From: a phage
Sequence record: OZ503098.1
Length of the DNA: 44,954 nucleotides
Strand: one strand, 5' to 3'
The notes under the pieces are model-generated. The model ran no database searches and had not been told where the DNA came from. It was given only the letters and a program-made list of their open reading frames with translations. Both the position numbers and the translations under genes were made by a program. This document shows, in pieces, positions 2,944 through 36,917 of the stretch. Numbering within the stretch: the stretch's first letter is position 1; every line of letters begins with the position of its first letter.

Positions 2944-3005
2944 TATGTTTTCCTTTTTAGCGGGGGCGGTATTGCCCCCGACGTGATTAAGATACTGCAA
3001 CCAAC

Positions 3006-3476
3006 CTATTGGTTGCAAGTGAATTTTGCAACGTTTATCGCATAAATTTTCGGGACCAGATCGCCGCACGCCCGACGAATTGCCGCGATGTTCTTCGGAC
3101 AGTCTTCAATGATGACCAGTTCCGACACGTCCGCATAGCAGACCATTTTGAACACGGCGCACGCCTTAAACTCTGGTGGCGGGGTGTCGTCCAGCATGTG
3201 GCGCATAAACAACCGGCCTGCCGGGAAGACCTCCAATTGCTTGGCGGTGGTGTCCCAACATTCTAGCTGCCGGTTGGTCAGATACGCGATCTCGAAGCCT
3301 TGCTCTTTGTACATGCGCAACAGCGGCAGCATATCCATGTTCAGGTCTTCGCGTACATGCGCTTTGTGCCACTTTGCCCAAAAGGTTGATTTCGTTTTTA
3401 TCCCCGGCACCAGGTCGGCACGCGCATCGCTTGAACCGTTAATAACGCCATCCAAATCGCAAATAAGTAATTTCAT
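3006..3476 (-). CDS. HAD-superfamily phosphatase/nucleotidase-like protein
   Basis: N-terminus MKLLICDLDGVI contains the HAD motif I (DxDG[TV]); 156 aa. Confidence 0.55.
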   Translation of the reverse strand: MKLLICDLDGVINGSSDARADLVPGIKTKSTFWAKWHKAHVREDLNMDMLPLLRMYKEQGFEIAYLTNRQLECWDTTAKQLEVFPAGRLFMRHMLDDTPPPEFKACAVFKMVCYADVSELVIIEDCPKNIAAIRRACGDLVPKIYAINVAKFTCNQ

Positions 3477-4648: not shown

Positions 4649-4677
4649 AATATAATGCAACCAATCTAATTATGCAA
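4649..4677 (-). promoter_or_regulatory. Sigma70-like promoter built from two direct ATTGGTTGCAT copies (TTGCAT, 17 bp spacer, TATATT); a GC hairpin (4626-4646) lies in the leader
   Basis: Minus-strand reading: ATTGGTTGCATaattagATTGGTTGCATTATATT; the first copy supplies the -35 and the -10 follows the second copy after a 17-nt spacer. Confidence 0.35.
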
Positions 4678-5005
4678 CCAATTTACGAATAAAATTTGGG
4701 TCGCGTGCAACGTCTACCAGATACAGGTTACTAATGCGGTTGCCGTAGTGCCCTGGTGTGCGCTGGCGGCACACAACGGCGAAGCCGGGAGGGATTGTAT
4801 TGCCAGTCTCGATAATCCACGCTACGCGCGCGCCAGATAGCGTCTTGCCGTTGCACTCGATGCGCGTGCCGCCATCGGCAGTGTTGAGGTTGCCAATCTT
4901 ACATCCGGTGGACTTCAGGCGAATGACGCCGGTCTTGCTGTCGTAGGAGAATAACTGGTTAGTCATTGCAACCGAAAAATCAATGGCCTCGAATGTAGTA
5001 TTCAT
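4670..5005 (-). CDS. HNH-like endonuclease (degenerate) / hypothetical protein
   Basis: 111 aa; FSYDSKTG...NGKTLSGARVAWIIETG...GHYGNRISNLYLV follows the layout of small free-standing phage HNH proteins; catalytic residues are not all canonical. Start overlaps the stop of the upstream gene. Confidence 0.4.
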   Translation of the reverse strand: MNTTFEAIDFSVAMTNQLFSYDSKTGVIRLKSTGCKIGNLNTADGGTRIECNGKTLSGARVAWIIETGNTIPPGFAVVCRQRTPGHYGNRISNLYLVDVARDPNFIRKLVA

Positions 5006-7598: not shown

Positions 7599-7877
7599 CT
7601 ATGCGACCAATTCAGCAACCAATAAATCACAGTCGGCGATGTTGTCTATGACGCGAACGTCCGCACCGCGGCGGGCCATCCGCTCATGCTCGCGTACCTG
7701 GTGCGGCTTCGGTTTTCCGCCGGGGCGCTTCACTTCGACGAACACTATTTTGCCGTTGATGATGATAATCAGATCGGGCGCACCCGCGCGCCCCTCCCAG
7801 GCCATTTTGCGGCAGAATCCGCCTACCTCTTTCACCCGTCGCATCAGGTGACTTTGAATCTTGCCTTCTGGTGTCAT
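7599..7877 (-). CDS. VRR-NUC domain nuclease
   Basis: APDLIIIINGKIVFVEVKRPGGKPKPHQ matches the VRR-NUC PD-(D/E)xK core (D...E-V-K); ATG 7877 abuts the upstream stop. Confidence 0.6.
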   Translation of the reverse strand: MTPEGKIQSHLMRRVKEVGGFCRKMAWEGRAGAPDLIIIINGKIVFVEVKRPGGKPKPHQVREHERMARRGADVRVIDNIADCDLLVAELVA

Positions 7878-11849: not shown

Positions 11850-11939
11850 TTTCCAATTCCTCATTTTCACATGTATCGGGGTTATTGGAAGCCACCCCGT
11901 TCGGCTTGGTTGCTAATCTACTTGGTTGCGCCTGAGCGG

Positions 11940-14769: not shown

Positions 14770-15033
14770 GGTATATCTCCGATTGGTTAAGTTTGGCGTC
14801 CGGGCGGTATGCCCGGTCGACGAGGGAGATATTAGATTGGTTGCAGAAGGGAGTCAACAACTAATTTCAAAAAAAAGCGCCGAGGCAAAATGCAACGGCG
14901 CTAACCAATAAGAGACAATGAGACGGGAATTATTATTACACGCGTGCGCGCCCGTTTCAATATTCCAAAGAAGTTGACACCCTACGGTTTTAGGTGTAGT
15001 TTCGTTGGTCATTAACCAACCGAGGACAGAGCA
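14770..15033. promoter_or_regulatory. Divergent early control region: leftward promoter (about 14932-14960, TTGAAA-17-AATAAT on minus), rightward promoter (about 14974-15002, TTGACA-17-TAGTTT), leader hairpins at 14800-14816 and 14867-14902
   Basis: Only place where the two strand blocks diverge; consensus TTGACA -35 on plus; back-to-back -35 elements 14 bp apart flanking palindromic ACGCGT/GCGCGC words; minus-strand hairpin AGCGCCG...CGGCGCU followed by U8. Confidence 0.5.
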
Positions 15034-15363
15034 ATGAATGTAAACGACGCAATCGAAATGTTAACGAAGACTGTTAGCAGTGAAACAAGCCGGTCATGGG
15101 CGTATACCGATGCCGTGGGTGCGGTGCTATTTGAAATCGAACGTCTGCGACTTACCGAAAAAGAATTGCGCGCGAAGCTGGAATTACTCAACGGTACTGC
15201 AGCAAGCAAGCTGCAAAAGCACAATGAAGAAATGGAAGAATACAAAAAGCAGGTTATCCGTTTGCGCGCCGAGGGCAAATCCTGGGCGATGATTGCCGAG
15301 TTGACCGGAATTAATCAGAGCACTGTGCGCTCCTGGGTGCGCAATAATAAAACTTCCAAATAA
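15034..15363 (+). CDS. Helix-turn-helix DNA-binding regulator (sigma-70 region 4 / LuxR-type HTH at the C-terminus)
   Basis: C-terminal RAEGKSWAMIAELTGINQSTVRSWVRNN is a typical HTH (region-4-like); N-terminal coiled-coil-like segment; GAGGA RBS; first gene of the rightward block. Confidence 0.6.
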   Translation: MNVNDAIEMLTKTVSSETSRSWAYTDAVGAVLFEIERLRLTEKELRAKLELLNGTAASKLQKHNEEMEEYKKQVIRLRAEGKSWAMIAELTGINQSTVRSWVRNNKTSK

Positions 15364-15367
15364 GGCT

Positions 15368-17638
15368 ATGACCATGAGTTTAATTAAATTCGCAGTAACA
15401 AGACCCGCTAAAAAAGGCGAAAAAGCCAGGGCGGAAAACTTCCAGATGACCACCGATGAATTTTTCGAATTTATCAAAGATGCGAAAGAAATCTCCTCGG
15501 TGCATATCAATAAGACGGAAGATAAAGCCGAGTATGCGCGCCGCAAGCGTAAGGCCGATGGCATCGTGGCATATACCAGTGACGGCCTTCGCCGCAAGAC
15601 CAGTGCGGTGGACCGCTCGATCCTGTTCTTCGATATTGACCGTACCGACACCCGCACCCTACGCCGCTGCCGTAAGGCGTTCATTGACGCGGGTCTGGAA
15701 CACGTATTTCACACCACAACCGGCGACCGTCACCCACTGAAAGGAGGCACGCGTTGCGCCCGTTTCCTGGTGTTAACTGACAAGCCTGTACCGGCTGAAG
15801 ACCTGGGCCGCGTCCAGTATGCACTATTACACCAACTGGGTCTGTCAGATGTGGACTTCGACGATTGCACGAAAGACACAAACCGCCTGATGTACCTGCC
15901 TCACCAGCAGTCTGTTATTAAGTGCCACTACGGCAAGCGCGCCCGCGTCCGCCGTCTGCTCCGCCTGGCTGATAAGCTGGGAGTTGAGAAAGAGGAAGTA
16001 CGCCGCGAGCTTACCCAGGGCGACGACGCAGTGGCAGACGGCATTCTGGACTGGTGCTTCCAGGCAGGATTCGAGGAGTTATCTTCCGGGCGGGGCTTTG
16101 AAGTGCCGTGCCCGAACGAACATCTGCACAGCGGCGAAGGGTCGACGGCTATCATGGTCAAGGATGGCGAGATCCGTTTCAAGTGTATGCACACCGGCAA
16201 CGAGTGTTGCTCTGAACTGAATAGACACCAACACCTGGCGCTACGTCTTATCGGCATCCCGGACCACCTGAACGTCGAGCCACACAATATGTCCCGTAAG
16301 CAAATCGCCGCCATCCTTCCGGGGCTGGACGACGAGGAAGTCGAATCCTTATATGAACATATTGTTGATGCGGTTGGCGACGGCGAAGAATACGGCGTGT
16401 GCACCGATGCGGATCTGGATAACGAGCCGGTCGCGCTGTTCAGTAAGCACGACACGATTATCGAGGGGTTGATTAACTTTAAATCGACCTGGTACATGGC
16501 GGGTGAGTCGAATATCGGTAAGTCTTTCTATGTGCTGGGCCAAATGGGCGCGGTTGCCGCCGGTATTCCGTTTGGTGGTGCGAAGGTCGTCCAGTCTCAT
16601 TGCTTCTATTTCGACGCGGAAGGTGGCGAAGCCTCCAACCAGCGTAAAGAAGCATTGCAGATTAAATACGAGCACGACCTGGACAAGCTGCACATTATAG
16701 ACCTGCAGTCACGCGGCTGGGATATCACCAGCAAGTCCGGCTTGCGCGAAGTTATCAGTTTTATCAACCGCACCGCTAACGGCGAGCCGGTTGGCCTGGT
16801 GGCGTTCGACTCACTCAACCAGACTGTTGCGTTGCGGTCCGCCGAGGCTAAACCGTTCGACGAGAACAACGCCAGCGATATGGGCGAAGTGGTCAAAGCG
16901 CTGAAGGCCATCGCGGAAAACACAGGTGGCAGTGCGGGCGTCATTCACCACCCGGCGAAAGGTGCAAACGGCAGCAGAACCCCACGCGGGTCCGGCGCGC
17001 TGCATGGTGCTGTCGATTCCGCTTTCTTCCTGGAACAGCCGGACGACAACCAGCCCGGACAATTGAACCTGTATCACGAAAAGTCACGTAACGGCATCAA
17101 GCAAGCGCCGCGCGGCTTCGTCCTGCTCAAGTGCAAAGTTAAGGTGGATCTCCGCAAGTCAGAAGCGTTCGAGGCGCACCAGTCCACCAGCACCGGGCCA
17201 GACTTCGGGGATGTGGTTGCCGGTTGGGACGTCAAGCCGATCGCCTCCACGCCACGCGACGAGACTCTCTACCTCGTACCGGTTGCCCTGGCACCGTTCG
17301 CTATTGAACAGGCGAAGGCGGCAGGCAAGGCCGCGGTTAAGGAAGAGAACACCGCCGGACCGCGCAACGGAAAAGAGAAAGTGCTTTATGCTGCACTGGA
17401 AAAACTGATGGAAGATAACCCGGACCATACTGGATTCAGTAAATCGGCGATTGTCCGCCAGGCGGGACTCGCGAAAGGTGGCACGTCGACGAAGGCAATC
17501 GACGATATGGTGGAGCGCGGCGTGATAGGTTTTTACACCGATCCGCACACCGGGGCCATCTATGGGTCGTCTAATTTGGTCATCAAATCGGATATCCCAA
17601 TCACGCTTTCAGCGACCGATGAAGACTTAAAAGATTAA
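15368..17638 (+). CDS. Primase-helicase: archaeo-eukaryotic-type primase-like N-terminal domain fused to a RecA-like P-loop NTPase
   Basis: N-terminal LFFDIDRTD (acidic DxD-type motif), central Cys/His cluster (CPNEHLHSGEG...CMHTGNECC), C-terminal Walker A GESNIGKS and Walker B-like LVAFDSL. Confidence 0.7.
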   Translation: MTMSLIKFAVTRPAKKGEKARAENFQMTTDEFFEFIKDAKEISSVHINKTEDKAEYARRKRKADGIVAYTSDGLRRKTSAVDRSILFFDIDRTDTRTLRRCRKAFIDAGLEHVFHTTTGDRHPLKGGTRCARFLVLTDKPVPAEDLGRVQYALLHQLGLSDVDFDDCTKDTNRLMYLPHQQSVIKCHYGKRARVRRLLRLADKLGVEKEEVRRELTQGDDAVADGILDWCFQAGFEELSSGRGFEVPCPNEHLHSGEGSTAIMVKDGEIRFKCMHTGNECCSELNRHQHLALRLIGIPDHLNVEPHNMSRKQIAAILPGLDDEEVESLYEHIVDAVGDGEEYGVCTDADLDNEPVALFSKHDTIIEGLINFKSTWYMAGESNIGKSFYVLGQMGAVAAGIPFGGAKVVQSHCFYFDAEGGEASNQRKEALQIKYEHDLDKLHIIDLQSRGWDITSKSGLREVISFINRTANGEPVGLVAFDSLNQTVALRSAEAKPFDENNASDMGEVVKALKAIAENTGGSAGVIHHPAKGANGSRTPRGSGALHGAVDSAFFLEQPDDNQPGQLNLYHEKSRNGIKQAPRGFVLLKCKVKVDLRKSEAFEAHQSTSTGPDFGDVVAGWDVKPIASTPRDETLYLVPVALAPFAIEQAKAAGKAAVKEENTAGPRNGKEKVLYAALEKLMEDNPDHTGFSKSAIVRQAGLAKGGTSTKAIDDMVERGVIGFYTDPHTGAIYGSSNLVIKSDIPITLSATDEDLKD

Positions 17639-17719
17639 TTTTTGCGCGCATTGGTTGCCAAATTGCGTGCTTTTAGGTGGTCGTATTGGTTGCCGTGTAG
17701 TGTAAATATAGTGAATAGT

Positions 17720-17905
17720 TATGCAATAAAACTGCATAAACTAAGCGGGACAAAAAGCGGGACAGACAGGAGGCGGGACAAAGCGGGACAGCACCCCTGT
17801 CCCGCCCCGGATGACGCGGCCTGGCGAGGAGCGGGACAGCGGGACAGCACCCCAGTCTTTCAGACTAGACGGGGGGTCTGGCACCCCCCTCGTCTGAGAC
17901 TGCAT
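17720..17905. repeat. Iteron/hairpin array 1: at least six direct GCGGGACA copies, inverted TGTCCCGC copies and a G6/C6 hairpin, preceded by TGCATAAA
   Basis: GCGGGACA at 17745, 17757, 17773, 17783, 17831, 17839; inverted copy at 17798; AGTCTTTCAGACT palindrome and GACGGGGGG-tctggca-CCCCCCTCGTC hairpin at 17853-17895. Non-coding (the TTG-start ORF 17642..17998 is rejected). Confidence 0.7.
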
Positions 17906-18061
17906 AAAATCCGGGATTGCATAATACACGGCAACATGATGCAAATTGCGGTCGTCGGTGAACTAGGCAACCAATGCGAGTTGCAGAATGGTGGGTGAAA
18001 AATGCAGTTTGCAGTCACAGCAGATAGCGATCGACTTTTTCATACGCGTGATTAATATTGG

Positions 18062-18090
18062 TTGCACCCGCCCTGGCACCCTGCTATATT
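18062..18090 (+). promoter_or_regulatory. Sigma70-like promoter TTGCAC-17-TATATT embedded in two ATTGGTTGCAC motif copies, upstream of gene 18119
   Basis: -35 TTGCAC 18062-18067, 17-bp spacer, -10 TATATT 18085-18090; motif copies at 18057-18067 and 18088-18098. Confidence 0.45.
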
Positions 18091-18118
18091 GGTTGCACAC
18101 CAACATGAGGACTGAACA

Positions 18119-18412
18119 ATGAAAGCTTTAATCTGGAACTACACAATGGCGGTGGCAAAGCTGTACGAAGCGCGCCACCACAACGGCAACATACCAGAAG
18201 CCCAGCATGAGGCCGTCATGGCCTGGCATGCGATCATGAACGCGAGTTCGGACCAGGGGGCCCCCGAACCTCTGCGCATGGCTATCCAGGCCTACGCGCT
18301 TGCATTCGCCCGTGAGCGCCTGGCGTATCGCTTCGGTGTCGGCGAGACGGCAGTGACAAACGTCGCCCGGATTAAAGCCCAGCGCGAGCTATTCGCCCAG
18401 CTTGCGAAATAA
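18119..18412 (+). CDS. Hypothetical protein (97 aa)
   Basis: ATG with GAGGA RBS, directly downstream of the promoter above. Confidence 0.5.
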   Translation: MKALIWNYTMAVAKLYEARHHNGNIPEAQHEAVMAWHAIMNASSDQGAPEPLRMAIQAYALAFARERLAYRFGVGETAVTNVARIKAQRELFAQLAK

Positions 18413-21074: not shown

Positions 21075-21104
21075 TTGACTCGCAACCAACATAGGGGCCA
21101 TACT
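21075..21104 (+). promoter_or_regulatory. Promoter-like element TTGACT-18-CATACT overlapped by two (T)GCAACCAA(T) motif copies
   Basis: Motif copies sit in the spacer and at the start site, i.e. operator-like placement; precedes a strong GGAGGAG RBS. Confidence 0.35.
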
Positions 21105-21133
21105 GCAACCAATCAACTGGAGGAGTAATCAAG

Positions 21134-28316: not shown

Positions 28317-28345
28317 TTTTGTGTCCTCGTTGTTGGTGTGCAACC

Positions 28346-28375
28346 AATATATTGCAACCAATACCCGGATTGCAA
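28346..28375 (-). promoter_or_regulatory. Promoter for the moron: TTGCAA-18-TATATT on the minus strand, overlapping two ATTGGTTGCA copies
   Basis: Minus-strand reading: TTGCAAtccgggtATTGGTTGCAaTATATTGGTTGCAC; same architecture as the 18062-18090 promoter. Confidence 0.4.
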
Positions 28376-33158: not shown

Positions 33159-33175
33159 ATAGCAGGTGATAATAT

Positions 33176-33198
33176 GGGGCCAGACGGCCCCTTTTTTA
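33176..33198 (+). terminator. Rho-independent terminator after the major tail protein gene
   Basis: GGGGCC-agac-GGCCCC followed by TTTTTT. Confidence 0.6.
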
Positions 33199-33213
33199 TT
33201 GGAGAATACCACA

Positions 33214-33576
33214 ATGGCTAAAGCACCACTCTTTACACTTGACCCTAAGCCTACCTTTAAGCTGCCGATTGAGATCCCGCGCCCTGGTGAGAACGAACCG
33301 GGCAAAATGACGTTTACCGTACGCCACCGCCCGATCGACGAATTTTCGCAGACCATGCAGGATACTGAGCGCAAGTTGTCGGAGTATGACGACAATGACC
33401 CTGACGGCTTTAACGTTATGGTCGAGGCCATAATGCACGTCGCTGAAGGCTGGAATCTGCCGGACGAATTTAACGCGGAGAACGTCCGCCGCCTGGTGGT
33501 CAACTACCCGCGCGCGTTCGGCGTGTTCCACACGTCGTACTATCTCGAACTGATGGGGCTGCGTGAAAAAAACTAA
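33214..33576 (+). CDS. Tail assembly chaperone (lambda gpG-like), zero-frame product
   Basis: ATG 33214 with GGAGAA RBS; 120 aa acidic protein between the major tail and tape measure genes; ends at a slippery heptamer. Confidence 0.6.
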   Translation: MAKAPLFTLDPKPTFKLPIEIPRPGENEPGKMTFTVRHRPIDEFSQTMQDTERKLSEYDDNDPDGFNVMVEAIMHVAEGWNLPDEFNAENVRRLVVNYPRAFGVFHTSYYLELMGLREKN

Positions 33577-33890
33577 TTGAGGCGGCGCGACGCTTTTATG
33601 GCCCGCCGCCACCCTCCGAAGATTTAGCCGCAAGTTTATGGGGTGCGGCCCCCGAAGATGTTTGCCCGCCGGTTGCACTATGGCCCGACAATGCGAAGGT
33701 AGTCGCAGTCTTCACGGATTGCGCCACGCAATGGCGTACCGGATTCGGTGGCGCATACGGCATCGACTACGGCGTACTGGAATGGTTATTTAATATGCAC
33801 GGCATCGAAAACGCGCAACGTGCGTTTAAAGATATCAAGCTAATGGAACGCGTTGCGCTGGATGAAATGGCGCGGCAGAACCCCGCATAA
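33214..33890 (+). CDS. Tail assembly chaperone frameshift fusion product (gpGT-like) made by -1 frameshifting at 33567-33573
   Basis: The -1 frame is open from the slippery site A_AAA_AAC (33567-33573) to TAA 33888-33890, 107 codons translated by hand with no stop; canonical arrangement upstream of tape measure genes. Confidence 0.5.
33567..33573 (+). other. Slippery heptanucleotide A_AAA_AAC for programmed -1 ribosomal frameshifting
   Basis: Codons GAA AAA AAC TAA in the zero frame; a -1 shift gives AAA AAA CTA ATT GAG and onward. Confidence 0.5.
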
Positions 33891-34215
33891 CGGAGCGGGA
33901 CAGGCGGGACGTCCCGTTTTGTCCCGCACCTCTAAAACTGCATATTTACTCACCACAATTGCATAAATCAAAAGCGGGACAGGGGTGCTGTCCCGATCTG
34001 TCCCGCCCCCAAAATGTGAATGTCTATTCAGTTTTATTGCATAAAGTAAGCGGGACAAAAAGCGGGACAGAATGAGGCGGGACAAAGCGGGACAGCACCC
34101 CTATCCCCGCCAGTGCTGCCGCGGGTTTTAGCCGATCGGGACAGGCGGGACAAAGCCCAGTCTTTCAGACTAGACGGGGGTCAATGGCCCCCCTCGTCTG
34201 AGACTGAATAAGGTT
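33891..34215. repeat. Iteron/hairpin array 2 (expanded copy of array 1) inserted between the chaperone and tape measure genes
   Basis: GCGGGACA/TGTCCCGC copies at 33895, 33904, 33926, 33975, 33991, 34002, 34051, 34063, 34079, 34089 and 34153 (approximate); block 34048-34107 nearly identical to 17742-17802; hairpin block 34157-34215 nearly identical to 17850-17905; TGCATAA words at 33939, 33960, 34038, 34251. Confidence 0.7.
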
Positions 34216-34274
34216 TGTTTTAAATTCGCTGATACAATGACCGACGGCAACTGCATAAAAAGGGGGACTGCATA

Positions 34275-36917
34275 ATGGCAGATCAGGCAGCGGGCATCAC
34301 GCTCAAGGCGGACGTCGCGCAAATTAAAACGGCTAATACTGTGCTGGACACATTTGCGCAGAAATCCGAGAACACAGAACAGAAAGTCAAAAAATTAAAC
34401 GACACCCTCGGCAAGTCGAAAAAGGTCACGGGTGACGCCGCTGGCGGAATGGAAAAGTTAGCGACTGAATCTCAGCGTGCCGCCGACGGCATGACGAAAC
34501 AGGAGCGACTCGCCAGCCGATTAGGCATGTCGACCAAAAACCTGGGATTCGCATCGCGGAACGCCGCATTCCAGTTACAGGATATCGCGGTTACGCTTGA
34601 GATGGGTATGCCGGTGCACCGCGTCATGCTTCAGCAGCTACCACAGCTAACCGGCGCATTTGGCGGACTGGGTAACACGCTGCGTTATGTTGCAGGCTTC
34701 CTCGGCCCAGTAGGGATCGGACTTGCTGCCGTAACGGCGACGTTAGGCGTGGGCGTGGCAATTACGTCACGGGCAGAGAACCAGGTAGCCGCGCTTAATA
34801 AGACGCTGGCGCTGTCCGGTAATATCTCCGGCCTCACAGCTAACCAGATCCTGGTGCTGTCCGAGAACGCCGAGCGCATGGGCGGGTCTTTTCGCAAGAC
34901 GCGTGACACAATCCAGGCACTGGCGGCGGCTGGTGTGAAAGCGGGTGGTGACTTCGGCGCATTGGCTAAGGTAGTTAATGACTTTGCGAAGGTGTCCAGC
35001 CAGCCGATCGAGGATGTGGTGGCGGCGGTGGCTAAGCTGTCAACCGACCCCGTTGGCGGACTGCGTGCGCTGGCGGATAAGTATCACGTCGTAAACGAAG
35101 CGCAGATCCAGCAGGTACAGTCGCTCGTTGATGCGGGTCGTGAGACAGACGCAGTTGCGTTGGCTAACAAAACAGCCGCTGCGTCGTTCACCAGCATGAC
35201 CAATGAAATCAAGTCCAACATGGGTACGCTTGAGCGGTCGATGAACGTCGTCACATCGGCAGCTAAATCTATGTGGGATGCCATCCTGGATGTGGGCCGC
35301 GCGCAGTCCTCGAATGAGTCAGAGATGAAAGCGCGTGAGTCATTGCAGCGCATGACCACGGCTTATTATGCCGAGATGAAAGCGGTAAACGCTGCCGGTG
35401 GGGTAATGACTGAAGCGCAGAAAGCACGTATTAACATGCTTTACAGCGAACTGGTCGCCCAGGAAAAAGTGGTGGCATCGCTCACCCTGCGTAACCGTGC
35501 TGAGCGAGACAACGCCCGCGCCGCAGACGAATCCGCAAAGGCGAACGAGGAGGCCAACCGCACTGCCCGTGACCGCGCCGCGTTCGAGAAGGAATACGCC
35601 ACCAACGCTAAGAAACGCGCCGACGAGATCGCCCGTCTCAATTTGCTGAATAAGCGCGGCGTTATCGACGAGAAAGAGCTTGCCGAGGCGGTGAAGCAGG
35701 TAAACGAGCGGTACAAAGACCCCGCCCCGAAGAAGGCCGCGGCTGTTCGCGTGGACGCCGGTATGAAAATGCTGGAAGTTGCACGGAGCGAACTGGCCCA
35801 GCTTCGAGAATCCGGCAAGCAGATCGAAGCCAACGCGTCTACGCAGACCCGCACGCAACGCGCTCAAGCGGCCTTAAACAAGCTGATCGCCGACAATGAG
35901 CAGTTAATCGCTGCGAGCAAAGAAAGAGCGCTAACGGCAGCAGAAAAGCAGCAGATGGTCGAATTCGGACGCGTGAAGGAAGTGCGCGAGCAGATCGTCG
36001 AAGAAGCCAAATTGCTGGACGCGAAAGAGAAGCAGGTTAAGGCGCACGCGCAGATCGATGCCTTCGTTAAGAACCAGAACGCCGAACTAAAAGCCACCGC
36101 CGCGGGGTATGCGCTTTCCACTCGCGAAGCGGCAAACCTGCGCGAAGAATTGCAGCTAATTGACCGCCTGAAGCGGGTTGGCGCTAACGATACCGATATT
36201 GACAAGGCGGTGTCTAAGCTGCGAGAAGTGCAGGAAGCACAGACCGGCGCTAACGCCTCGTTATGGGATGGATTCAGTCGCGGGCTTAAAGATAGCGTGG
36301 ATGAAATGGGTAACGGATATACGCAGATGGCGTCGCTCACGAAATTCACATTCAGCGCTATGCAAGACACGATGAACGAGTTTTTCGAGACTGGCAAGCT
36401 GAACGCAAAGGATATGGTTAAATCCATCCTGAGCGAACTAATCAAGCTGGCTACCTCGCAGGCGTTCAAGTCCATCGTTAGCGCTTTCGGTGGCGACGGC
36501 GGCAAAAACGGATTGTTCGGCGCTATATTCTCTGGCCTCACTAAGAATGCGGACGGCGGAGCGTACGCAGGAGGCAATCTCGCGGCCTATTCGGGGAAAG
36601 TCGTAAGCCAGCCTACCTTTTTCAGTTATGGCGTCCAGGCGTTCGCTAAGGGCGCGGGGTTGATGGGGGAGGCGGGACCCGAGGCCATCATGCCACTGAA
36701 GCGCGGGCCAGACGGAAAACTGGGCGTTGCCGCGTCTGGCGCAGGCGGTGGTATGGTCGTGACGACTAACGTTTACACGGGGACCGGTAAAACGGATACC
36801 AGTGTCAGCGGGCCGGATCCCCGTACCGCGCAGGCGTTCGGCAAGCAAATCACCGAGGCGGTGAAGGCCGAGATCGTGAAGGCGACGAAACCGGGTGGTG
36901 TACTTTACAAACGATGA
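34275..36917 (+). CDS. Tail tape measure protein
   Basis: 880-aa ORF with AGGGGGA RBS; long helical, Ala/Gln/Lys/Glu-rich middle and Gly-rich C-terminus; position after G/GT. Confidence 0.8.
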   Translation: MADQAAGITLKADVAQIKTANTVLDTFAQKSENTEQKVKKLNDTLGKSKKVTGDAAGGMEKLATESQRAADGMTKQERLASRLGMSTKNLGFASRNAAFQLQDIAVTLEMGMPVHRVMLQQLPQLTGAFGGLGNTLRYVAGFLGPVGIGLAAVTATLGVGVAITSRAENQVAALNKTLALSGNISGLTANQILVLSENAERMGGSFRKTRDTIQALAAAGVKAGGDFGALAKVVNDFAKVSSQPIEDVVAAVAKLSTDPVGGLRALADKYHVVNEAQIQQVQSLVDAGRETDAVALANKTAAASFTSMTNEIKSNMGTLERSMNVVTSAAKSMWDAILDVGRAQSSNESEMKARESLQRMTTAYYAEMKAVNAAGGVMTEAQKARINMLYSELVAQEKVVASLTLRNRAERDNARAADESAKANEEANRTARDRAAFEKEYATNAKKRADEIARLNLLNKRGVIDEKELAEAVKQVNERYKDPAPKKAAAVRVDAGMKMLEVARSELAQLRESGKQIEANASTQTRTQRAQAALNKLIADNEQLIAASKERALTAAEKQQMVEFGRVKEVREQIVEEAKLLDAKEKQVKAHAQIDAFVKNQNAELKATAAGYALSTREAANLREELQLIDRLKRVGANDTDIDKAVSKLREVQEAQTGANASLWDGFSRGLKDSVDEMGNGYTQMASLTKFTFSAMQDTMNEFFETGKLNAKDMVKSILSELIKLATSQAFKSIVSAFGGDGGKNGLFGAIFSGLTKNADGGAYAGGNLAAYSGKVVSQPTFFSYGVQAFAKGAGLMGEAGPEAIMPLKRGPDGKLGVAASGAGGGMVVTTNVYTGTGKTDTSVSGPDPRTAQAFGKQITEAVKAEIVKATKPGGVLYKR

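Follow-up and report, generated by a model that had tools for sequence, protein, structure and literature searches.

A second copy of an initiator-linked iteron module interrupts the tail operon of a Dhillonvirus-type phage and is probably an origin-type site

The non-coding block that separates the tail chaperone genes from the tape measure gene in the Dhillonvirus coliphage genome analyzed here (sequence record OZ503098.1, 44,954 nucleotides, hereafter the window) is a second copy of a module that follows the primase-helicase gene, and is therefore most likely a second replication-origin-type binding site. We consider it probable that this block, termed block B, is an array bound by the phage initiator, comparable to oriR of SPP1 or crr of P4, and that a weak terminator-like hairpin and a probable tape measure promoter are contained in it as well. 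The (G)CGGGACA words from which it is built are most likely the binding sites of a phage-specific replication initiator. The original prediction, made from the letters of the genome, had left open whether the block is a replication origin, a protein-binding array, a packaging or recombination site, or a transcriptional insulator. Comparative evidence, in the form of paralogy, linkage to an initiator gene and co-variation, favors the first two of these proposals, the insulator is partly compatible with the data, and packaging finds no support.

Block B (33891-34274, +), as delineated from its sequence, word counts and relatives, extends from the stop codon of GT to the ATG of the tape measure gene. 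The tail assembly chaperone G with its frameshift extension GT (33166-33890, +; Pfam Phage_TAC_4) ends at 33890 and the tape measure gene (34275-36917, +) begins at 34275, confirming the non-coding gap that had been described. The 6 kb surrounding the block match 159 GenBank phage records at 80-99% identity, all from Dhillonvirus coliphages (HK578, JL1, SSL-2009a and SO-1-like phages), and block B is found in 159 of these 159 records, which rules out the earlier concern that the repeats might be a misassembly absent from relatives. A conserved protein in relatives, also raised as a possibility, can be dismissed as well, because many single-base indels separate the near-invariant words in an alignment of 14 relatives. 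It had been supposed that the G/GT-tape measure junction is normally contiguous. This is true of the more distant relatives Pappous and L289, where G, T and the tape measure gene adjoin, but the junction is interrupted by block B in all 159 Dhillonvirus records. Depositors have annotated either the first hairpin of the block alone, as a terminator (HK578 and WFI), or a 'repeat_region' (phage rolling), and a full-text literature search for the 8-mer returned primer sequences only. The overall layout is evident from the fully annotated relative Bas85, in which one strand carries a T7-like replication set (DNA polymerase, gp2.5-like SSB, exonuclease and helicase) and the other carries a small HTH protein, a 'replicative helicase-primase', small genes, and the lysis, terminase, head and tail genes.

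The 8-mer GCGGGACA occurs 20 times in the window when both strands are counted, compared with 2.0 occurrences expected, and none of 100 shuffled sequences reached this number. Its 7-mer core CGGGACA is present 28 times (5.8 expected) and the word TGCATAA 13 times (5.6 expected). Block B holds nine exact GCGGGACA/TGTCCCGC words within 33895-34152 and 11 cores within 33896-34152, such that an initial count of at least ten words is correct for the cores, although slightly too high for exact 8-mers. The TGCATAA words reported for the block number four, and such words are kept even in phage eiAU. We considered and rejected the idea that TGCATAA/TTATGCA words are DnaA boxes, as neither block contains a match to TTATNCACA with one mismatch or fewer and the count across the window is that expected by chance.

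The block opens with a sub-module (B1; 33891-33930, +) made up of GCGGGACA, the palindrome GGCGGGAC/GTCCCG, TTTT and the inverted word TGTCCCGC, which folds with -13.9 kcal/mol (z -4.1) and is annotated as a rho-independent terminator in HK578 and WFI. An AT-rich spacer with TGCATAT and TGCATAA (33931-33969, +; GC 0.375 in 33940-33979) then leads to a second sub-module (B2; 33970-34009, +; z -3.7), in which a GCGGGACAG-GGGTG-CTGTCCCG hairpin is followed by TGTCCCGC. B2 is an 81% identical repeat of B1 at a spacing of 79 bp, and the word hairpins of the form GCGGGACAG-loop-CTGTCCCG(C) that had been predicted are indeed present at 33895-33927 and 33974-34006. A second AT-rich spacer with TGCATAA (34010-34049, +; GC 0.325 in 34020-34059) is a candidate DNA-unwinding segment. 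It precedes four direct GCGGGACA iterons (at 34050, 34062, 34077 and 34087) and a degenerate inverted word, a stretch (34050-34094, +) that is invariant in 14 relatives. The AT-rich islands beside the iterons (GC 0.325-0.375 at 33940-33979, 34020-34059 and 34200-34239, compared to approximately 0.55 for the genome) are defined by composition only.

Two more direct words, CGGGACA and GCGGGACA (34137-34152, +), are followed by the bulged stem-loop CAGTCTTTCAGACTAGACGGGGG-TCAATGG-CCCCCCTCGTCTGAGACTG (34158-34206, +), whose DNA fold has a free energy of -13.4 kcal/mol (z = -3.6) and whose stem and flanks are invariant in relatives, with variation confined to the loop. This structure had been described as a G6/C6 stem-loop flanked by a palindrome. 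The stem-loop is found as described, but the block B copy is G5/C6, and the palindrome AGTCTTTCAGACT lies on the 5′ side (34159-34171) and is absent on the 3′ side, where the sequence is GTCTGAGACT. Further downstream, TGATACAAT (34230-34238, +) is, from our own reading of the sequence and alignment, a candidate extended -10 promoter, with the ATG of the tape measure gene some 37 nt beyond it. Next comes a pair of TGCATAA words (34252-34275, +) that are 17 nt apart and flank the Shine-Dalgarno sequence AAGGGGGA; the second word overlaps the tape measure start codon.

Seven further GCGGGACA words, which had escaped the original prediction, are clustered at 17745-17846 (seven CGGGACA cores in 17746-17846) together with the same stem-loop, with the cluster reaching 17902. 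The module to which they belong, block A (17700-17925, +), lies about 80 nt past the stop codon of the primase-helicase gene, with its first word at 107 nt, and consists of an AT-rich lead-in, four direct words, an inverted pair, two words, the stem-loop in its G6/C6 version (17853-17902, +; -15.1 kcal/mol, z -3.7) and two TGCATAA words. Alignment of 17720-17925 with 34034-34275 gives 79% column identity over approximately 200 bp, and the order of elements is identical: TGCATAA, four direct words, an inverted pair, two words, a stem-loop of the form CAGTCTTTCAGACTAGACG(5-6 G)-loop-CCCCCCTCGTCTGAGACTG, and two TGCATAA words 17 nt apart. Blocks A and B are hence paralogous. Block B differs in having two additional 79-bp upstream units, B1 and B2 (each a word-hairpin-inverted word arrangement followed by an AT-rich spacer), and a 47-nt segment holding TGATACAAT that is missing from block A. 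A small ORF after block A (ATG at 17936) is not conserved and was set aside.

The words are not only enriched but confined to these two clusters, and both blocks show the clustering of one short word that is characteristic of iteron origins. Exactly two word clusters and two stem-loops are present in each of the window, Bas85 and SM_A2. Across Dhillonviruses the words, stem-loop and flanks are near-invariant in both blocks and the hairpin loop alone varies. Identical loop variants turn up in block A of some phages and in block B of others, a pattern suggestive of exchange between the blocks.

A 200-bp module that carries internal inverted repeats and occurs twice might also be a duplicated element, selfish or neutral and for example MITE-like, that serves no phage function. 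We disfavor this explanation and consider it extremely improbable, since the module occupies the same two positions in 159 genomes, strong purifying selection acts on its words and stem-loop, a two-site layout persists across lineages that use different words (see below), and no copy occurs in 5,426 complete E. coli genomes. The fixed positions of exactly two copies led us to reject a mobile repeat, and the lack of any match in the E. coli genomes likewise led us to reject a host, prophage or satellite origin of the module.

The near-invariant stem-loop and TGCATAA words, and the location of block B immediately before a start codon, could also be explained by a role in transcription or at the RNA level. 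A rho-independent terminator would have a GC-rich stem of 5 bp or more, a loop and a T-run on the sense strand. The B1 hairpin CGGGACGTCCCG is followed by TTTT, yet a terminator scan made no call on the + strand, and relative L276 has a clearer terminator just upstream. TGATACAAT, read against the extended -10 consensus TGnTAnAAT, is kept in 14 relatives but was not called by a consensus promoter scan, which needs a -35 element, because no such element is present. The proposal of a transcriptional insulator is thus partly compatible with what we find, in that a terminator-like hairpin follows GT and the conserved TGATACAAT precedes the tape measure gene. As the 47-nt promoter-like segment is unique to block B, a local transcription role probably coexists with a replication role.

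It is less easy to regard the block as an RNA element, in which hairpins in the late transcript would bring about processing, stability, attenuation or antitermination and thereby uncouple the tape measure gene from the upstream tail genes. The hairpins and the stem-loop do fold better than shuffled sequence (z -3.6 to -4.1), the stem-loop is transcribed in the sense direction, and eiAU and L287 retain its core, with differing outer stems and a single compensatory change. However, a scan of the whole window with Rfam 15 at the gathering score gave no matches, and the main stem-loop has no U-tract after it. Moreover, unpaired flanks and bulges vary no more than the stems do, an indication of sequence-specific recognition, and RNA structure would not explain direct repeats that co-vary with a protein domain. 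This explanation is accordingly very unlikely in our view.

The preferred reading of the words as initiator binding sites raises the question of which protein recognizes them. The replicative primase-helicase (15368-17638, +), with Pfam AAA_25 at amino acids 360-533, is the candidate initiator. It matches phrog_3228 'replicative helicase-primase' over its full length and corresponds to HK578 gp46. Its N-terminus is AEP-like, with weak PHROG primase matches, and the protein has no sequence match in the PDB. The two potential binders named in the original prediction were this protein and a small HTH protein, and the first is favored here, given that the word co-varies with its C-terminal domain. 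This variable domain (17369-17638, +; roughly amino acids 668-756) is predicted to comprise three helices and two strands (helix-helix-helix-strand-strand) with an acidic tail, and is the favored candidate reader of the iterons. A single-sequence AlphaFold model of the C-terminal 110 amino acids has a pLDDT of 46, and from this low-confidence model we used the order of secondary structure elements alone, which is that of a winged helix. A homologous-protein search with the C-terminal 197 amino acids gave no match. With the C-terminal 92 amino acids, a HMMER search of 1.84 billion representatives recovered only Dhillonvirus-type proteins and three giant repetitive proteins (adhesin or tail-fibre-like) whose matches we judged spurious. 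On the basis of the model and the comparisons that follow, the primase-helicase is the best candidate reader of the words, presumably by way of this winged-helix-like domain.

Comparison of lineages establishes that the word switches together with the C-terminal ~100 residues of the primase-helicase, whereas the primase and helicase parts stay conserved in all three lineages. In HK578, L142 and L143, the protein is 88%, 83% and 68% identical to that of the window and the C-terminal domain 96%, 84% and 55%, and CGGGACA is retained with the same stem-loop. In L146-L151 and L153, primase-helicase identity is 48-49%, the C-terminal domain is alignable but changed (36%), and the word is (A)CTCGCAA, with no CGGGACA. 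In eiAU and L152, the identity is 45% and the word is (T)CGCCCCG; the eiAU protein can be aligned up to '...DETLYLVPVALAPF' and not beyond, leaving the C-terminal domain unalignable. The domains of the CTCGCAA and eiAU lineages are also mutually unalignable.

Each of the three lineages has two paralogous sites, one past the primase-helicase gene and the other inside the late structural genes. In eiAU, CGCCCCG words together with a shared 'GGGGCAsTTATTGATTTAyAAAG' segment follow the primase-helicase gene and recur shortly before the tape measure gene, where a hairpin with the same bulged core, GACG-G5...C4-T-CGTC, comes after them. In the 68% lineage (L287), the order is GT, terminator, a reverse-oriented inserted gene, the CGGGACA array with its stem-loop, and the tape measure gene, and the stem-loop carries one compensatory change, from AGACG:CGTCT to GGACGG:CCGTCC. 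The contigs of the CTCGCAA lineage, which were located by an IMG/VR scan with a pattern longer than ACTCGCAA pairs, have site A past the primase-helicase gene and site B in the head-gene region, between the major capsid gene and a 349-aa ORF that itself lies downstream of the portal gene; the two sites are 69% identical over 277 bp. A second array among the late structural genes, evolving in step with the first, has therefore been maintained and is no accident of a single genome.

Arrays of the same word also occur outside the genus. A scan of IMG/VR for two GCGGGACA words 0-8 nt apart, whose results constitute a sample, listed many contigs that have dense arrays yet lack DNA similarity to the window, and among the matches listed we counted 37 non-Dhillonvirus loci with at least six CGGGACA cores in 400 bp. 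At 31 of these 37 listed loci the array abuts or sits inside a gene of replication-initiator type. In the largest group (17/37 of those listed) the array is found where an AAA_25 primase-helicase gene ends; its first core lies no more than ~225 nt before or after the stop codon in 16 of the 17 (457 nt downstream in L049), and some of the ORFs terminate within the first words. At four more of the 37 listed loci the array lies directly past another large gene (615-766 aa); among these L115 alone has weak Toprim/AAA matches, and a Pfam search with L074, representing the other three, found no match. At the remaining ten of these 31, the array is inside a gene of 226-329 aa, just past the part encoding the N-terminal DNA-binding region; annotated phage homologues of this family are replication initiation, DnaD-like or O proteins. 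A common grammar runs through the arrays, in which several direct words are followed by an inverted pair flanking a GC-rich hairpin, with AT-rich tracts between word groups and a hairpin stem sequence that varies from locus to locus. From the gene positions at the loci listed, CGGGACA arrays are consistently attached to replication-initiator genes. The linkage to its own initiator gene that is typical of an iteron origin is therefore apparent at three levels: the position of block A, the 31 of 37 loci listed, and the co-variation of word and domain. When the Dhillonvirus C-terminal domain was compared by hhalign with the putative origin-binding domains of the three outside initiator classes that use CGGGACA, there was no significant similarity.

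These loci bear also on the possibility that the array regulates transcription, with the words acting as operator or activator sites for a phage factor such as the small HTH protein (15034-15363, +; Pfam HTH_23 / Sigma70_r4_2) encoded in the primase-helicase operon. Such a factor would set the expression of the operon past the primase-helicase gene and, via block B, that of the tape measure and distal tail genes. Consistent with this idea, both blocks coincide with a gene or operon boundary along the direction of transcription, block B combines a terminator-like hairpin with the conserved TGATACAAT, and every lineage has a small HTH gene ahead of the primase-helicase gene, one that differs between lineages. 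The HTH proteins of the eiAU and CTCGCAA lineages are of a common Cro-like type (37% identity), to which the Dhillonvirus protein is unrelated. On these grounds the HTH protein is an alternative candidate reader of the iterons. However, no homologue of it is found in the non-Dhillonvirus CGGGACA-array loci among the matches listed, where arrays reside inside O/DnaD-like initiator genes at 10 unrelated loci and, at 21, adjoin or run into the 3′ end of a gene for a primase-helicase or for another large protein of initiator type. These positions are typical of an origin and not of an upstream activating site. In addition, the general intergenic motif of this phage is a different word, ATTGGTTGC, with 16 exact copies, two of which overlap a TTGCAC-17-TATATT promoter. 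We therefore regard a purely regulatory array as unlikely.

Repeated words are also typical of the sites bound by small terminase subunits, and three GenBank records (PNS1, Maverick and Kente) start or end in or next to block B, as might be seen if the block were a packaging (pac) or recombination site read by a terminase or recombinase. Nevertheless, a 200-bp internal repeat is where an assembly would be expected to break and a record to end. Dhillonviruses are reported to package by a headful mechanism, and their records have been opened arbitrarily at the small terminase gene (PMC9022532). Block B is ~11 kb from the terminase genes, the small terminase gene included, and both the second copy and all outside arrays among the matches listed track replication genes rather than terminase genes. 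A packaging or recombination site is thus highly improbable.

A replication origin-type site that is bound by an initiator would account for these distributions, and we infer the following course of events. The primase-helicase would bind the words through its C-terminal winged-helix-like domain, and the AT-rich spacers and bulged stem-loop would provide the place where DNA opens and where helicase and primase are loaded. Block A would serve as the origin linked to the initiator gene, and block B as a second origin or as an accessory initiator-bound site within the late operon, which might itself start replication, pair with block A, or retain bound initiator. Initiator held on block B could stall replication forks and trigger a switch to concatemer synthesis, as has been proposed for SPP1 oriR. 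The cumulative GC skew suggested earlier as a check on the origin has its minimum at ~15 kb, and it is uninformative on this point because the minimum follows the switch in gene orientation.

Judged by analogy, this design has close precedents in SPP1 oriL/oriR, P4 ori/crr and pRN1, and the feature most likely belongs with the iteron origins that have a second, distant site, of which SPP1 and P4 are known examples. Satellite phage P4 needs a second iteron cluster, crr, in cis and several kb from ori. Of the three precedents, Bacillus phage SPP1 is the nearest. Its oriL is within the initiator gene, and its oriR occupies a stretch of non-coding DNA that breaks up the run of late assembly genes; gp38 binds to both, and a role in stalling forks and triggering the theta-to-sigma switch has been proposed for oriR (PMC6316719). 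Two paralogous origin regions ~13 kb apart in a 44-kb genome compare well with modules 16.3 kb apart in a 45-kb genome. [quoted passage not shown] The placement logic is also the same, with one site at the initiator gene and one among late virion genes, an arrangement found in the window, in eiAU and in the CTCGCAA lineage, whose second site is in the head-gene region. There are differences, however. SPP1 uses a separate organizer (gp38), the loader gp39 and the DnaB-type helicase gp40, whereas the candidate in the window is a fused AAA_25 primase-helicase; oriL lies inside gene 38, whereas block A comes after its gene; and there is no sequence similarity between the two systems, binding in the window being predicted. 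Because its candidate initiator is an AAA_25 primase-helicase of phrog_3228, the window does not belong to the SPP1 family and is only functionally analogous.

The alpha protein of P4 unites primase, helicase and a C-terminal winged helix that reads short origin repeats in one polypeptide (PMC4234260). It consists of a Toprim primase and an SF3 (D5-like) helicase, in contrast to the AEP-like N-terminus and AAA_25 RecA-type core of the window protein, and the P4 iteron sequence is also different. We rejected classification of the window protein as a P4 alpha-type initiator, as its only Pfam match is AAA_25, no solved structure in the PDB is matched, and the C-terminal winged-helix model is of low confidence (pLDDT 46). 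In the archaeal plasmid pRN1, a repressor gene and a gene for a primase-helicase-winged-helix protein are followed just 3′ by an essential stem-loop origin (PMC4234260). The gene order in pRN1 (orf56 / orf904) and in Bordetella phage BIP-1, namely small DNA-binding protein, primase-helicase and stem-loop, is the same as in the window. pRN1 has no iterons, one site and an SF3 helicase, whereas in the window iterons dominate and the module is duplicated. RSF1010 RepA is a helicase of the AAA_25 type. The oriV of this plasmid places RepC iterons beside the priming hairpins ssiA/ssiB, which are served by the RepA helicase and the RepB′ primase (PMC4234260). Its likeness to the window is in iterons that adjoin hairpins, for which a priming role in the window is putative; unlike the window, RSF1010 employs three separate proteins and a single origin. 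Lastly, lambda ori inside gene O and the internal origins of lactococcal and staphylococcal replisome-organizer genes resemble the outside loci with arrays within O/DnaD-like genes (F1), where two sets of direct repeats flank an AT-rich spacer directly after the N-terminal DNA-binding domain. The window is unlike the lambda O type in that its arrays are intergenic and its initiator candidate is of a different protein family.

Dhillonviruses are common coliphages that are used in therapy and in defence-system research, and our literature search found no mapped replication origin for them. The present analysis contributes two candidate Dhillonvirus origins, a candidate origin-binding domain, and a natural series of specificity swaps (CGGGACA, CTCGCAA, CGCCCCG). 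That three lineages keep a second array among late genes suggests, insofar as comparative sequence data can, that the two-site design may be widespread, a solution of general use and not one peculiar to SPP1. A 2026 preprint reports that the mutations by which HK578 escapes the OLD defence lie in the primase-helicase and in the promoter of its operon, and its authors argue that OLD senses hairpins at iteron origins, with the HK578 origin itself unmapped in that work (bioRxiv 10.64898/2026.07.10.737580). Because escapers map to this operon and origin hairpins are the proposed triggers, the arrays are direct candidates for the structure that OLD and Lamassu sense.

It is conceivable, though rather doubtful as a whole, that the second array is an obligatory long-range partner of the initiator-linked origin, acting as a programmed fork barrier or through looping or handcuffing. 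It would then time the theta-to-concatemer switch and tie it to late transcription, and would be conserved across a supergroup with self-contained primase-helicase initiators. In parallel, cassettes of an origin-binding domain and CGGGACA words would have been exchanged between unrelated initiators, and the arrays would be the trigger for OLD and Lamassu in Dhillonviruses. On a practical note, inserted genes are tolerated at the GT/tape-measure junction of relatives, and the junction is for this reason a usable insertion site for engineering.

Dense arrays of the iteron core of the window, CGGGACA, are carried by many unrelated phage contigs (IMG/VR loci L010-L125, among the matches listed), for example at L014 9516-9848, L094 1116-1452, L064 559-692 and L074 13913-14170. 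In 31 of 37 loci, again among the matches listed, these outside arrays adjoin or lie inside a replication-initiator gene, and the genes concerned fall into at least three architectures. In an O-like initiator family the CGGGACA words are translated in three frames, yielding a linker of the type ...RDSSGTAAGQQRDKP. Outside arrays frequently include a GC-rich hairpin flanked by inverted words, with a stem sequence that varies by locus.

The candidate initiator of the window phage is its primase-helicase. Throughout the supergroup, every primase-helicase terminates with a conserved acidic tail, SATD(E/D)DL(K/E/N)D, including those in which the domain before it cannot be aligned (17612-17635 in the window, protein ...SATDEDLKD). 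In view of the T7-like polymerase and gp2.5-like SSB of the phage, this tail may, by analogy with that of T7 gp4, contact the polymerase or SSB. When the C-terminal 197 aa (17045-17635) were used as a protein query, zero matches were found in the word-indexed protein database, from which close relatives appear to be missing; near-identical proteins are encoded by 159 GenBank phages.

Two further words recur in the window. Eight of the 13 copies of TGCATAA/TTATGCA lie in the two iteron blocks (17719-17924 and 33960-34275), and the eiAU lineage keeps these words despite its different iteron word. Their identity as DnaA boxes was rejected, as neither block holds a DnaA-box match. The other word, ATTGGTTGC, occurs exactly 16 times, and 27 times when up to one mismatch is allowed, versus 12.7 expected. 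Its sites (2997-3016, 4657-4682, 7603-7623, 11905-11929, 14836, 17650-17693, 17967, 18057-18096, 18610, 21082-21113, 28340-28362 and 44382) are nearly all at gene junctions, frequently as pairs. This word is also found in the CTCGCAA lineage, and eiAU is rich in it as well (23 copies of TTGGTTGC).

ATTGGTTGC is separate from the iterons and probably has a promoter or operator role. It overlaps both hexamer regions of a good match to a sigma-70-like promoter (18064-18092, TTGCAC-17 nt-TATATT) that lies upstream of a gene beginning at 18119 and is absent from the output of the consensus scan. Another copy lies within 14829-15064, where two gene orientations diverge, the minus strand has three sigma-70-like promoter matches and cumulative GC skew reaches its minimum. 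In the related phage HK578, one mutation that permits escape from the OLD defence system maps to the gp45-gp46 operon promoter (bioRxiv 10.64898/2026.07.10.737580), to which 14829-15064 would correspond.

The junction between GT and the tape measure gene, occupied by block B (33891-34274) in the window, is a gene-insertion hotspot. It also holds a reverse-oriented inserted gene in two related lineages, L287 (4970-5500) and eiAU (L126, 3187-4081), with its own promoter region bearing TTGGTTGC. Three GenBank records, NC_073063.1 (PNS1), LR990702.1 (Maverick) and OX460974.1 (Kente), begin or end within block B or at most about 100 bp away, most simply as a result of assembly breaks at a 200-bp internal repeat, although they may instead be true ends.
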